Source: a virus (lineage: Duplodnaviria; Caudoviricetes). From it: a DNA stretch of 64,000 nt. Numbering within the stretch: position 1 is the first letter of the stretch; each line of letters opens with the position of its first letter. The notes beneath the pieces are model-generated. The model did no database searches and was not told the origin of the DNA. It was given only the letters and a program-made list of their open reading frames with translations. The position numbers were made by a program, and so were the translations under genes. The stretch is taken from IMG/VR virus record IMGVR_UViG_3300008110_007313, one strand, 5' to 3'. Shown here in pieces: positions 32,201 to 44,502 of the stretch.

Positions 32201-32247
32201 TTGAATTCACAAACCTGTTTGGCAAGTTCTTTAATTCGTTCGTTCAT
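32197..32247 (-). pseudogene. 16-codon remnant of an MNERIKELA-type small phage gene
   Basis: MNERIKELAKQVCEFK-stop; resembles the N-terminus of the family that includes the 32378..32566 protein. Confidence 0.4.
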
Positions 32248-32378
32248 AGAAGTCTTTTCCAAGTTTAGCATCTACCATTCTATGACCATGCACATCCGCC
32301 CAGAACTGCTAACGCCACATAGGCAGCATGAGCCATGGCCGTGTGCAGTGTTTCAATTGGGTTTGTTGCTTGTGACAT
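32231..32378 (-). pseudogene. internally deleted, frameshifted small gene
   Basis: Frame 1 MSQATNPIETLHTAMAHAAYVAL; another frame QFWADVHGHRMVDAKLGKDFYERTN-stop. Confidence 0.45.
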
Positions 32379-32566
32379 TATTCTTCAACTCCGAAATGTT
32401 TTAGGATATCAAAAGCATTGTCATCGTCTGCAACAAGGTCAGCACATTCACGAACAATCAACTCGGCATATTTTTCCAAAGCGGCTTCCCATGGGACTCG
32501 CTTGGCACCAAGTCCGTATACATCAAGACCGCTTTGTCGTTCAAATTCTCGAAGTAGTTTGTTCAT
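32378..32566 (-). CDS. small phage hypothetical protein
   Basis: EKYAELIVRECA-KHFGVEE motif. Confidence 0.75.
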   Translation of the reverse strand: MNKLLREFERQSGLDVYGLGAKRVPWEAALEKYAELIVRECADLVADDDNAFDILKHFGVEE

Positions 32567-32712
32567 TGTATTTCTCGGTTAGGATGTTTTGGATTACGAC
32601 GGTATTCGGTCTTGGGACGTTCCACACGACCGCGGAAAGGCAAGTCCTGATCAAACAGAGCACGGTGTCGACGCTCCTTGGGTATTTGTAATCGAAATTG
32701 TATAGGTTTCAT
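32563..32712 (-). CDS. ArfA-like (alternative ribosome rescue factor A) 49-aa peptide
   Basis: ALFDQDLPFRGRVE-YRRNPKHPNR aligns by eye to E. coli ArfA [23 protein letters not shown]; ATGA-coupled. Confidence 0.55.
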   Translation of the reverse strand: MKPIQFRLQIPKERRHRALFDQDLPFRGRVERPKTEYRRNPKHPNREIQ

Positions 32713-32924
32713 TCTAACTCTCCAGTTACGACATTGACTTTGCCATTGTACACAGCACAAACTATTTCCTGGTTGGCAACTTTGAATGCAGTTTCATTGA
32801 AACGGTCAATGTATGCCTGTGCTTCTACGGCAGTGTCAAACTCTTTTTCCAATCTAACTTTGTGCAAATTGGGCCGTCCCAACTCAACAGGGTGAACTTG
32901 AACAATATGTTTAAATTTTGCCAT
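32709..32924 (-). CDS. hypothetical protein
   Basis: 71-aa ORF with AAGGA RBS. Confidence 0.65.
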   Translation of the reverse strand: MAKFKHIVQVHPVELGRPNLHKVRLEKEFDTAVEAQAYIDRFNETAFKVANQEIVCAVYNGKVNVVTGELE

Positions 32925-32945: not shown

Positions 32946-33182
32946 TTAACCCCAATCTTTTTTGTCGCCATTGGCTTCATTGTCGCGATAACCTGCTGTA
33001 TAGGCCGCGAGCTCTGATGGGGTCATCTGCTCCATGTCAATGCGACGACTTCTGTGAGTGTCGCCTGCAAAGTAATGAGGCCAGTAGTCACGACCGTAGT
33101 AGCTGTCTGCTACGCCGCGATCGTATGGACTGCCATGGCGTTGATCATAATGACCAGATTGTGTAGTTGTTTCTGCCAACAT
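32946..33182 (-). CDS. hypothetical protein
   Basis: HGSPYDRGVADSYY-AYTAGY; start MLAETT after the promoter. Confidence 0.7.
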   Translation of the reverse strand: MLAETTTQSGHYDQRHGSPYDRGVADSYYGRDYWPHYFAGDTHRSRRIDMEQMTPSELAAYTAGYRDNEANGDKKDWG

Positions 33183-33209: not shown

Positions 33210-33238
33210 ATTATAACAAATTGGCAATTTTGAGTCAA
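33210..33238 (-). promoter_or_regulatory. early promoter repeat
   Basis: TTGACT-N17-TATAAT. Confidence 0.85.
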
Positions 33239-33240
33239 CC

Positions 33241-33266
33241 AAAAGAAAAGCCCCTTGCGGGGCTCT
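33241..33266 (-). terminator. intrinsic terminator after the phasin-like gene
   Basis: AGCCCC-ttgc-GGGGCT with U-tract on - strand. Confidence 0.85.
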
Positions 33267-33285: not shown

Positions 33286-33561
33286 TTACTTTTTAGATGT
33301 GGTAGCTGTGTAGGCTTTCATGATGCCTTCACCAAATTTGGTGTAGTCAAATTTCATAGCGTCTTGTGTGGCCTTGACCATTTCTGTGGTCAATGTGGTA
33401 AATGTGTCCATGCTCACTTTGGTGGCCTTTTTGGTGTAGTCAGCTTGAGCATCAATGAACTTGATCATTGCGTCTTTGGCTGTTTCATTTTGAACAAAAG
33501 TATTCACGAAAGTCTTTTTACCGGTTTGTACGGTGTCGATGATTGCGTCTGCTGTAAACAT
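33286..33561 (-). CDS. phasin-like helical protein
   Basis: 91 aa, amphipathic helix-rich (AMIKFIDAQADYTKKA); AGGAG RBS; PhaR-type box upstream. Confidence 0.55.
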   Translation of the reverse strand: MFTADAIIDTVQTGKKTFVNTFVQNETAKDAMIKFIDAQADYTKKATKVSMDTFTTLTTEMVKATQDAMKFDYTKFGEGIMKAYTATTSKK

Positions 33562-43089: not shown

Positions 43090-43313
43090 TAGAACATTTT
43101 TTTGGGCAGTTCTTGTTCACGCAGTTTCTTACGCCAGCGTTGTTTGGCTGCTGACGCTCTGAGTTTGCGTTGAGTTGTGGGTTTGATATAGTGTTCACGA
43201 TCTCGCAGATCATTTAGCATGCCCGAAGCAGCAATTTTCTTTTTGAATTTACGCAAGGCACGATCTACGTTGCCGTCTTGTACCAGTACTGATCTTCCGT
43301 GTAGTTTTTCCAT
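43089..43313 (-). CDS. rpsU: 30S ribosomal protein S21 (bS21)
   Basis: NVDRALRKFKKK-REHYIKPTTQRK, basic C-terminus. Confidence 0.92.
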   Translation of the reverse strand: MEKLHGRSVLVQDGNVDRALRKFKKKIAASGMLNDLRDREHYIKPTTQRKLRASAAKQRWRKKLREQELPKKMF

Positions 43314-43314
43314 G

Positions 43315-44502
43315 TCAGAGTTCTTTTGGACTATTTACCAAAGTTTTGTCAATATCTACGTGTTTAATGCCGTCTGAACGATAACGGCTCAGATTGTACA
43401 TGTGCGGCAGTAACACACGTTCAAGTTCTGAGTGCAGACCACGAGCACCTGTTTTGTTTTTAATGGTACGTTCAGCAATGAGATCCAGACTGTCCTTGGT
43501 AAACTCTAGGTCAACATCATCCTGCTTGAACAACCACTGATACTGACTCACGTAGTTGTGCTTGACTTCTTGCAGAATACGCACAAGATCTGCTTTATCC
43601 AGTTCTTGTAGAGCCACCCAAGTAGGAAAGCGCCCAACAAATTCAGGAATAAGACCAAATCTCACAAGATCATCGGGGGTCGTTTGATCTAGTTGACCCT
43701 TGACATCGTCTGTTATTTTAGCCCCAAATCCAATACTGGTGCCTTTGATGCGATTTTTTACAATGTTGTCTAGTCCCACAAAGGCACCGCCGGCAATGAA
43801 CAAGATGTTGGTGGTGTCGATTTCCACAGTTTCTCCTGTGGGATGTTTGCGTCCGCCTTGTGGAACAATACGACATTTGGTACCTTCTACCAACTTCAGC
43901 AAGGCCTGCTGGACACCTTCGCCTGACACATCGCGAGTGATACTGGCGCTTTCGCTTTTGCGACTGATCTTGTCAATCTCGTCCACAAACACAATACCAC
44001 GCTGTGTTTTTTCAAGGTCAAATCCCGAAGCGGCATACAGCCTTGAGATCAAACTTTCCACATCATCGCCCACATAGCCTGCTTCGGTCAGGCTGGTAGC
44101 ATCAGCAATCACAAAAGGCACATCCAGGTAACGTGCTACTGTGCGGGCCAGCAAGGTCTTGCCTGATCCTGTGGGTCCAAGCATAAGAATGTTGGCTTTT
44201 TCAATTTCGGTATTCTTGTCTTGATTGCCAATGCGTTTATAGTGATTGGCAATGGCCACGCTGAGTACCATCTTGGCCGCATCCTGACCGATCACATACT
44301 GGTCTAGATGGCGACGAATTTCTCTAGGATCAAGGCTGGGACGAGTTTCAGTATTTGTTACCGGCTGGTCTACTAGTAAATTTTGACAGAGGTCCACGCA
44401 CTCATTACAAATTGCAACGCTTTCGCCTACAATTAGTTTAGTCACGTTGTCTTTGTGTTTGCCGCAAAAACTGCAGGTATCAATAGATTTATTTTCGCTC
44501 AT
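43315..44502 (-). CDS. clpX: ATP-dependent Clp protease ATP-binding subunit ClpX
   Basis: CSFCGK-CNEC Zn finger, GPTGSGKT, TEAGYVG, DEIDK, RDVSGEGVQQALL, IGF loop, GARGL. Confidence 0.97.
   Translation of the reverse strand: MSENKSIDTCSFCGKHKDNVTKLIVGESVAICNECVDLCQNLLVDQPVTNTETRPSLDPREIRRHLDQYVIGQDAAKMVLSVAIANHYKRIGNQDKNTEIEKANILMLGPTGSGKTLLARTVARYLDVPFVIADATSLTEAGYVGDDVESLISRLYAASGFDLEKTQRGIVFVDEIDKISRKSESASITRDVSGEGVQQALLKLVEGTKCRIVPQGGRKHPTGETVEIDTTNILFIAGGAFVGLDNIVKNRIKGTSIGFGAKITDDVKGQLDQTTPDDLVRFGLIPEFVGRFPTWVALQELDKADLVRILQEVKHNYVSQYQWLFKQDDVDLEFTKDSLDLIAERTIKNKTGARGLHSELERVLLPHMYNLSRYRSDGIKHVDIDKTLVNSPKEL

Follow-up and report, generated by a model that had tools for sequence, protein, structure and literature searches.

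Does a phage gene of 49 codons encode a ribosome-rescue factor of the ArfA type? ArfA, known from the chromosomes of beta- and gammaproteobacteria, is a back-up factor that releases ribosomes stuck on broken mRNAs, and the question is raised by a short open reading frame (ORF), here called P0001, on the minus strand of a 64,000-nucleotide (nt) stretch of viral DNA (IMG/VR record IMGVR_UViG_3300008110_007313; the whole stretch is referred to below as the window). An earlier note, made from the letters of the window, had described a peptide of 49 amino acids (aa) joined to its neighbors by ATGA overlaps on both sides and had proposed that it is a natively short relative of ArfA. Direct reading of positions 32563-32712 confirmed both the frame and the overlaps: at plus-strand positions 32709-32712 the letters tcat (ATGA on the minus strand) make a 71-aa upstream ORF terminate within the ATG of P0001, and the same letters at 32563-32566 make the TGA of P0001 overlap the ATG of a downstream 62-aa ORF. 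The predicted protein begins with MKPIQF, has the core ALFDQDLPFRGRVE...YRRNPKHPNR and ends with EIQ before the stop; it is very basic, with 14 Lys and Arg residues and a net charge of +8. The analysis described below makes it somewhat more probable than not that P0001 is an early gene of a freshwater jumbo phage, encoding a diverged, phage-specific rescue factor that descends from ArfA and acts through host RF2.

P0001 is a real gene and not a chance frame. A word-indexed search of 5.8 billion proteins retrieved 66 homologues with 57-87% identity, nearly all of them 49-52 aa long, and 12 residues are invariant in their alignment (R14, H16, L19, F20, L24, P25, F26, R27, R29, Y37, R39 and H43). 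Pairwise codon comparison with 11 relatives yielded dN/dS values between 0.05 and 0.17, the median being 0.12, and the synonymous sites were nearly saturated; the gene is under strong purifying selection. The identical protein is present in at least 21 contigs, and the DNA stretch was found in sequencing runs of 15 studies, whose labels are lake water, freshwater or “fungus metagenome”. The shortness of P0001, which lies under most ORF cut-offs, is what one would expect of a mere chance opening between true genes. Such a reading is contradicted by a dN/dS of ~0.12 at saturated synonymous sites and by the 156 clusters of relatives described below; moreover, the position in the gene order is kept and relatives have dedicated promoters. 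We give it practically no weight.

Kinship of P0001 with ArfA

Profile comparisons indicate that the P0001 family is a remote, diverged branch of ArfA. When a profile built from the 66 homologues was run against 177,635 distinct PDB sequences, six matches were obtained at E≤10, all of them to ArfA (best 5u4i_w, E 7e-4); a wider profile of 118 sequences likewise retrieved ArfA only (E 4.5e-3). Alignment by hhalign of the family with E. coli ArfA (YhdL; Pfam PF03889; PDB 5MDV, 5U4I, 5H5U and 5MGP), whose sequence was taken from NC_000913.3, had a probability of 88% and an E-value of 2.9e-6 over 41 columns and placed K12-Q49 onto ArfA K12-G55. P0001 spans the whole portion of ArfA that is ordered on the ribosome. 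A 51-aa protein of Pseudoalteromonas phage J2-1 (ATN93434.1, MF988720.1) serves as a bridging sequence: it is 51% identical to P0001 over 37 residues (E 4e-10), scores 41.3 bits with the Pfam ArfA model (cut-off 25.5) and passes the cut-off of DUF7230 (PF23876) as well. Since the J2-1 protein passes both Pfam cut-offs, DUF7230 overlaps the ArfA superfamily. DUF7230 is also the sole Pfam match of P0001 itself (residues 28-47, 16.4 bits, E 0.01, below the 27-bit cut-off), and it is matched by 50 of the 66 relatives, none with E<1.2e-4, in the region from Arg-Val-Glu to Lys-His. In PHROGs, P0001 matches phrog_6310 (E 2e-4); both families, which P0001 and its relatives touch weakly, are annotated as “unknown function”. 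PF03889 was matched by one of the 118 wide-family members (E 3.7e-4), and a search of NCBIfam gave no match to P0001. Several homologues carry the JGI label ArfA, and the Atlas neighbors of P0001 include ArfA and DUF7230 clusters. The ArfA likeness claimed in the earlier note is therefore genuine kinship, though remote, and the E. coli ArfA motif quoted there is correct against NC_000913.3.

The functional parts of ArfA are known from five cryo-EM studies reviewed in PMC8012679. A short helix, made up of residues 15-24, lies at the decoding center; Phe25 and the strand Gln27-Glu30 dock on the domain 2/4 sheet of RF2; and the basic C-terminal part occupies the vacant mRNA entry channel, where its Lys-His (KH) motif binds a pocket. 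The N-terminal segment, which becomes ordered upon RF2 opening, is tied to activation, and the A18T variant binds and recruits RF2 with activation blocked. No more than 46-48 residues of ArfA are ordered, and activity is lost upon truncation to 40 residues (PMC8012679). In the alignment, Ala18-Leu19 of P0001 fall opposite Ala18-Leu19 of ArfA, Phe26 opposite Phe25, Arg29-Val30-Glu31 opposite Arg28-Val29-Glu30, Tyr37 opposite Tyr39, Arg39 opposite Arg41, Lys42-His43 opposite Lys44-His45, and Asn45-Arg46 opposite Asn47-Arg48. At the sequence level, the RF2-recruiting elements (the equivalents of Phe25 and Gln27-Glu30) are retained, and so is the basic KH tail; with 49 residues, P0001 exceeds the length of 40 and aligns through ArfA residue 55. 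Among 118 representatives of the wide family, taken at 50% identity or less and 29-61% identical to P0001, conservation reaches 100% at L19 and R39, 99% at K42, 98% at P25, 95% at K/R29, 93% at F26 (aromatic in 99%) and 87% at both Y37 and H43, and in the close family Ala18, Val30, Glu31 and Lys42 are each at least 90% conserved. As far as can be read from the alignment, the best-conserved positions of P0001 are the counterparts of the RF2-contact and mRNA-channel residues of ArfA. Arg14 and His16 are conserved positions new to the phage family.

An AF2 model based on the 118-row alignment (pLDDT 81, pTM 0.26) is an extended chain with a single short helix at residues 17-20, inside the region of ArfA helix 15-24. 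An extended chain of this kind would fit a peptide that acquires its fold only when bound to its target. A Foldseek search of the model against PDB gave no match, as expected for an extended chain of 49 residues.

Bacterial arfA mRNA is cut or terminated inside the ORF, and transfer-messenger RNA (tmRNA) hence normally destroys the product (PMC8012679). This design, with a hairpin, RNase III site or terminator inside the ORF and a dispensable hydrophobic tail, was not seen in P0001. A true TGA, overlapped by the next ATG, stands at codon 50; a hydrophobic tail is absent; and the 3′ region is no more stable than shuffled sequences (z +0.49) and has no arfA-type hairpin. In the control, the 3′ part of E. 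coli arfA, the known hairpin was recovered at -37 kcal/mol (z -5.06), and none of 200 shuffles was as stable. All 25 relatives inspected stop genuinely after 47-54 residues, and the stop of the J2-1 arfA gene likewise overlaps the next coding sequence. Given a real stop, no hairpin and no tail, the tmRNA-coupled control of bacterial arfA cannot operate on P0001, and the peptide deserves to be called natively short, as had been claimed. The phage probably makes it regardless of the state of the cell's main rescue system.

Proposed mode of action and competing readings

In infections of the T4 type, shut-off of the host and degradation of its mRNA would give rise to non-stop complexes at a time when tmRNA is not being replenished. 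In the reading that we favor, host RNA polymerase would transcribe the P0001 unit soon after infection, and the peptide would be made freely, its mRNA not being non-stop and hence not subject to tmRNA tagging. On ribosomes that have stalled at the 3′ ends of truncated mRNAs, the basic tail would thread into the empty mRNA entry channel, while Phe26 and the central Arg-Val-Glu strand would dock host RF2. RF2 would then hydrolyze peptidyl-tRNA, and the ribosome would be recycled without tmRNA. Ribosomes trapped on decaying host messages or on cleaved ones would thus be returned to the pool independently of the limited host tmRNA-SmpB. A partner supplied by the phage, either a release factor or a tmRNA, was considered and rejected: in two IMG/VR relatives of 349 and 343 kb (97-99% complete, both encoding bS21), neither an RF-1 domain or release factor nor SmpB was detected, and no tmRNA match exceeded the Rfam cut-off. 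Since complete relatives do without all three, catalysis must be supplied by a host factor.

Several observations weigh against this reading. The comparison with the ArfA hidden Markov model, which the earlier note had suggested as a check, did not return P0001: there is no PF03889 match even at E≤1 (cut-off 25.5 bits), and the model is weakly matched by only 2 of the 66 close relatives (best E 0.009). A phmmer search with P0001 alone against PDB sequences gave no match. Residues 1-11 are unrelated to the N-terminus of ArfA; a Pro is inserted ahead of the Phe, and three residues are gone from the Lys-Gly-Lys-Gly loop before the Tyr. At position 18, where Thr blocks activation in E. coli ArfA, the wide family has Ala in 33% and Val in 33%. 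No RNA contig covers P0001 in one freshwater metatranscriptome run that contains a small part of the stretch. Finally, ArfA/RF2 pairs are species-specific (PMC8012679). The prediction of a complex of P0001 (66-row alignment) with E. coli RF2 (score 0.20, mark 0.32) speaks neither for nor against the reading: ArfA binds RF2 on the ribosome, the partner is disordered alone, and the RF2 of the phage's host may differ from that of E. coli.

Four other readings can be weighed on this evidence. P0001 might be a small basic nucleic-acid-binding protein that has nothing to do with ribosomes, its likeness to ArfA being compositional or convergent. The charge of the peptide invites such a view, E-values are fragile for basic peptides of 49 residues, and the lone P0001 sequence has no significant ArfA match in databases. 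We nevertheless regard it as improbable: two independent profiles retrieve ArfA and nothing else from the PDB set, the alignment stays in register over 38 residues and matches the non-basic Leu, Phe, Val-Glu, Tyr and His, and the intermediate J2-1 sequence passes the Pfam ArfA cut-off. A more serious competitor, although clearly less probable than rescue through RF2, is a plug derived from ArfA. It would bind the channel and perhaps RF2 without triggering hydrolysis, would compete with tmRNA-SmpB and perhaps with host ArfA or ArfB by filling the vacant A site as well as the channel, and would in this way halt the tagging and ClpXP-directed destruction of unfinished proteins or blunt host responses to stalled ribosomes. 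The N-terminal segment linked to RF2 activation is indeed not conserved with ArfA, the wide family freely accepts Ala, Val, Ile or Glu at position 18 whereas E. coli A18T binds and recruits without activating, and the tail motifs are the most conserved portion. However, Phe26 and the Arg-Val-Glu strand, needless for a mere plug, are conserved as strongly as the tail, and stalled ribosomes left in place would cost the phage translation capacity. In addition, the conserved R14 and H16 could take over the activating role of the ArfA N-terminus; BrfA, whose N-terminus is likewise unrelated, provides an example.

Rescue of the ArfA type may also proceed with another partner: RF1, either factor (as for ArfT), or the RF2 of a host lacking an ArfA of its own. 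A different partner would suit both the divergent N-terminus and the shortening of the loop; release-factor-dependent rescue factors are species-adapted (PMC8012679); and relatives occur in phages of varied hosts, including an alphaproteobacterial one (Erythrobacter phage XM05, 42 aa). Since the Phe that gives ArfA its preference for RF2 is retained in the family, we consider this variant unlikely. The last reading is a speculative one, to which we assign a low probability. Lytic aquatic phages, ranging from 30-kb contigs to jumbo genomes of 350 kb, would share an exclusively viral, deregulated offshoot of ArfA that serves as a takeover tool and not as back-up rescue, seizing ribosomes with a vacant channel. 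Its expression would start at once from host-consensus promoters, in many cases on leaderless mRNAs. If so, tmRNA-SmpB would be outcompeted, leaving unfinished proteins untagged and stalled-ribosome signals silenced; alternatively, ribosomes would be stripped from host messages destroyed by the phage. On this view, phages taking over a cell would regularly target ribosome rescue.

The earlier note had further suggested that the peptide counters mRNA- or tRNA-cleaving defenses. Nothing in the sequence or in any other material found speaks for such a role. Since factors of the ArfA type require an empty mRNA channel (PMC8012679), and stalls caused by tRNA cleavage keep mRNA in the channel, the latter would not be direct substrates of an ArfA-type factor. 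The peptide had also been placed alongside phage bS21 and ClpXP. These genes are present in the window, which encodes bS21, a ClpX-like ATPase and two ClpP genes; a functional link does not follow from this. They lie 2-11 kb away in other transcription units.

Relatives in other phages and comparison with known rescue systems

An exhaustive profile search of 1.84 billion representatives yielded 156 clusters (50% identity) at E≤1e-3; among the 150 clusters listed, most members have 35-60 residues and about 20 are longer. In IMG/VR, the P0001 family was found at 45 loci, the contigs being 4-349 kb long. Two pattern scans, which detect only members that keep the motifs, revealed no family member in 185,579 species-representative bacterial and archaeal genomes. 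One scan used back-translated motifs and the other the degenerate pattern R-x-H-x-[AV]-L-F-D-x-x-L-P-F; four hits of the latter proved to be unrelated frames once translated. A 34-codon frame without a clear start codon in a Candidatus Berkiella metagenome-assembled genome (L059:2306-2407, minus strand; ...RRLHQVLFDLDLPFHH...QYKVHKGRYHP) matches the degenerate pattern and could be a decayed relative or a product of chance.

At 29 of 36 distinct viral loci, the ArfA-like gene has its own promoter of the form TTGAC[CAT]-17/18-TA[TC]AAT, whose -10 hexamer ends 6-9 nt before the ATG. These proximal promoters (loci L009-L053, ~45 nt upstream; e.g., L014:2956-3003) are not followed by a Shine-Dalgarno sequence. 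Such geometry implies that the mRNAs would be leaderless or carry a leader of ~3 nt. A terminator often precedes the proximal promoter, and the TGA of the ArfA-like gene often begins the -35 box of the next identical unit, so that tandem arrays of a promoter plus a leaderless small gene are formed. The phage of the window differs in that its ArfA-like gene lies within a conventional operon. By operon or by its own promoter, the gene thus appears to be wired for immediate expression by host polymerase.

In the two near-complete relatives, sub-threshold clusters of matches to the tmRNA model (G002:C1:96460-105627 and G001:C1:341131-347104) most probably represent groups of tRNA genes. A search with E. 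coli ArfA 1-55 brought up ArfA ORFs of canonical appearance in the cultured phages Arash, pf16 and XM05. In Salmonella phage Arash (OQ632216.1 57934-58158), the ArfA-like gp99c is annotated as “ribosomal protein L2”. In Pseudomonas phage pf16 (KU873925.1 ~131775-131927), an unannotated ArfA-like frame lies opposite pf16_199. Both lose the Lys-His motif straight after GKGSYRR, and the pf16 stop lies within a predicted hairpin, so that this gene may follow the non-stop design. Erythrobacter phage XM05_102 encodes 42 aa ahead of a real stop. A tblastn search of cultured phages with two distant family members gave no match, and a homologue search with the J2-1 protein returned only itself.

The closest functional comparison is E. 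coli ArfA, the active truncated form of which has the same size as P0001. The two share, in the same register, a short helix around Ala18-Leu19 (predicted for P0001), the Phe, the Arg-Val-Glu strand, a basic loop, the motif Tyr-x-Arg-x-x-Lys-His-x-Asn-Arg and, presumably, a common target, namely, the vacant mRNA channel with RF2. They differ in that P0001 falls below the Pfam cut-off, has 11 unrelated N-terminal residues, the Pro insertion and the three-residue deletion, ends at a real stop without 3′ hairpin, hydrophobic tail or tmRNA-coupled control, and is encoded by phages of lytic type and not by beta- or gammaproteobacterial chromosomes. Judged by its sequence, P0001 fails the Pfam cut-off and the non-stop design of ArfA proper but seems to retain its working parts. 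The J2-1 protein is, like P0001, phage-borne and natively short, with a real stop overlapping the next gene; unlike P0001, its N-terminus (GKxKDN) is still of the bacterial type and its score lies above the Pfam ArfA cut-off. The case stands isolated, in a cultured phage of 142 kb; its name, “alternative ribosome-rescue factor A”, is an automatic annotation, and no paper on it was found.

BrfA of B. subtilis and ArfT of Francisella are, like P0001, small basic proteins, and theirs is a release-factor-dependent rescue: each contributes a β-strand to the release factor and inserts a basic tail, which in BrfA has a KH motif, into the mRNA channel (PMC8012679). From these factors it is clear that RF2 can be activated by an N-terminus unrelated to that of ArfA, and ArfT works with RF1 or with either release factor. 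Neither has a detectable sequence relationship to P0001, and brfA uses the non-stop mRNA design. Huge phages carry tmRNA, SmpB, RF1/RF2 and RRF, whereas ArfA is not listed among their genes (Al-Shayeb et al. 2020, PMC7162821). Components of termination and rescue in giant phages are common to that inventory and to the present family; the complete relatives of the present phage are without SmpB, release factor and any tmRNA above cut-off.

That automatic pipelines label some relatives ArfA (JGI; the GenBank entry of J2-1) is already known. Our literature search, which had most subscription journals outside its reach, found no paper describing a phage-encoded ArfA or DUF7230. What the family would add is a rescue module, consisting of the RF2-docking strand and the channel tail, that appears to have been taken over by phages, freed of tmRNA control and placed behind immediate-early promoters of host type, and that has diversified into at least 156 sequence clusters found only in viral contigs. 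If the activity is indeed ArfA-like, infecting phages would exert active control over the pool of stalled ribosomes, an aspect of takeover that is absent from the PMC7162821 inventory and from the literature found. The family would then also be a source of natural ArfA variants that are minimal, constitutively active and different at the N-terminus, useful for learning what the opening of RF2 needs. Cultured phages with related genes (J2-1, XM05, pf16 and Arash) exist.

Transcription unit and genomic context

The features around P0001 are collected in Table 1. P0001 comes third among the cistrons of a unit that begins with a putative σ70-type promoter at 33238-33210, recognized by its match to the consensus; a leader of ~27 nt, in which AAGGAA provides the Shine-Dalgarno sequence, separates this promoter from the first gene. 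The unit starts after the terminator-like hairpin at which the preceding gene ends. A promoter pattern close to the host consensus leads one to expect early-gene timing, and P0001 should accordingly be expressed early, transcribed by the unmodified host polymerase.

Table 1. Position of P0001 and of surrounding features in the window.
Feature	Position	Strand	Remarks
ArfA-like gene P0001	32563..32712	minus	49 codons + TGA stop; based on translated sequence, homologues, dN/dS and ArfA homology
Upstream 71-aa ORF	32709..32924	minus	function unassigned; TGA overlaps P0001 ATG (ATGA)
Downstream 62-aa ORF	32378..32566	minus	function unassigned; ATG overlaps P0001 TGA (ATGA)
First gene of unit	32946..33182	minus	78 aa as called in related contigs; function unassigned; ATG 27 nt past -10 hexamer
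σ70-type promoter	33210..33238	minus	TTGACT, 17 nt, TATAAT plus TG extension; 11 of 12 consensus matches
Terminator-like hairpin	33247..33266	minus	8-bp stem with 5 GC pairs, then T-run; ends preceding gene 33286-33561
Ribosomal protein bS21	43092..43322	minus	83% identical to Pfam-positive bS21 of 349-kb relative G001; transcription unit separate from P0001

In the window, 19 near-perfect TTGAC[CTA]-17/18-TA[TC]AAT promoters were counted, every one on the minus strand; their positions include 51099, 33238, 25349, 24922, 24497, 21489, 13578, 7136, 6657, 6345, 6002, 5382, 4659 and 2798, plus others. Several have a nearly identical leader, ACTTGTATAGTAATTAAAAAGGAG, which resembles a reused promoter-leader cassette. 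Downstream of the promoter at 6657-6629, an ATG lies 6 nt past the -10 hexamer, making the 77-aa gene that it opens a leaderless candidate.

The local order of UvdE, small genes, the ArfA-like gene, small genes and ClpP recurs in several metagenomes and in a 348-kb JGI contig. The linkage of the 71-aa ORF to the ArfA-like gene is kept in the closest relatives only. In the 348-kb relative it is lost and the ArfA-like gene stands alone, and for this reason the idea of a functional trio with both ATGA-coupled neighbors was dropped.

The window is phage DNA, as its gene content shows: besides the two ClpP genes and the ClpX-like ATPase, it encodes ribonucleotide reductase, a DNA methyltransferase, an ATP-dependent DNA ligase, and virion and tail-spike-like proteins. 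No near-identical cultured phage was found when 6 kb were compared by megablast. The gene of bS21 adjoins, with a slight overlap, the gene of the ClpX-like ATPase (44502-43315, minus strand) on its downstream side, and the phage bS21 has at most 52% identity to sequences in 401 genomes of one phylum.

In the freshwater metatranscriptome, the sole exact contig (32069-32219, 151 nt) corresponds to the 5′ end of a 195-aa lipoprotein-like gene, and DNA carry-over is possible. Directly ahead of this gene, the region 32214-32380 (minus strand) contains a 16-codon remnant ORF (MNERIKELAKQ...). Metagenome contigs reveal many alternative joints between 32247 and 32380-32444 and a very high summed depth at 32204-32267, and in related strains 72- and 78-aa genes replace a 32-aa ORF in the 32214-32380 region. 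This region looks like a hot spot of recombination or gene swapping, bounded by a motif common to many phages.

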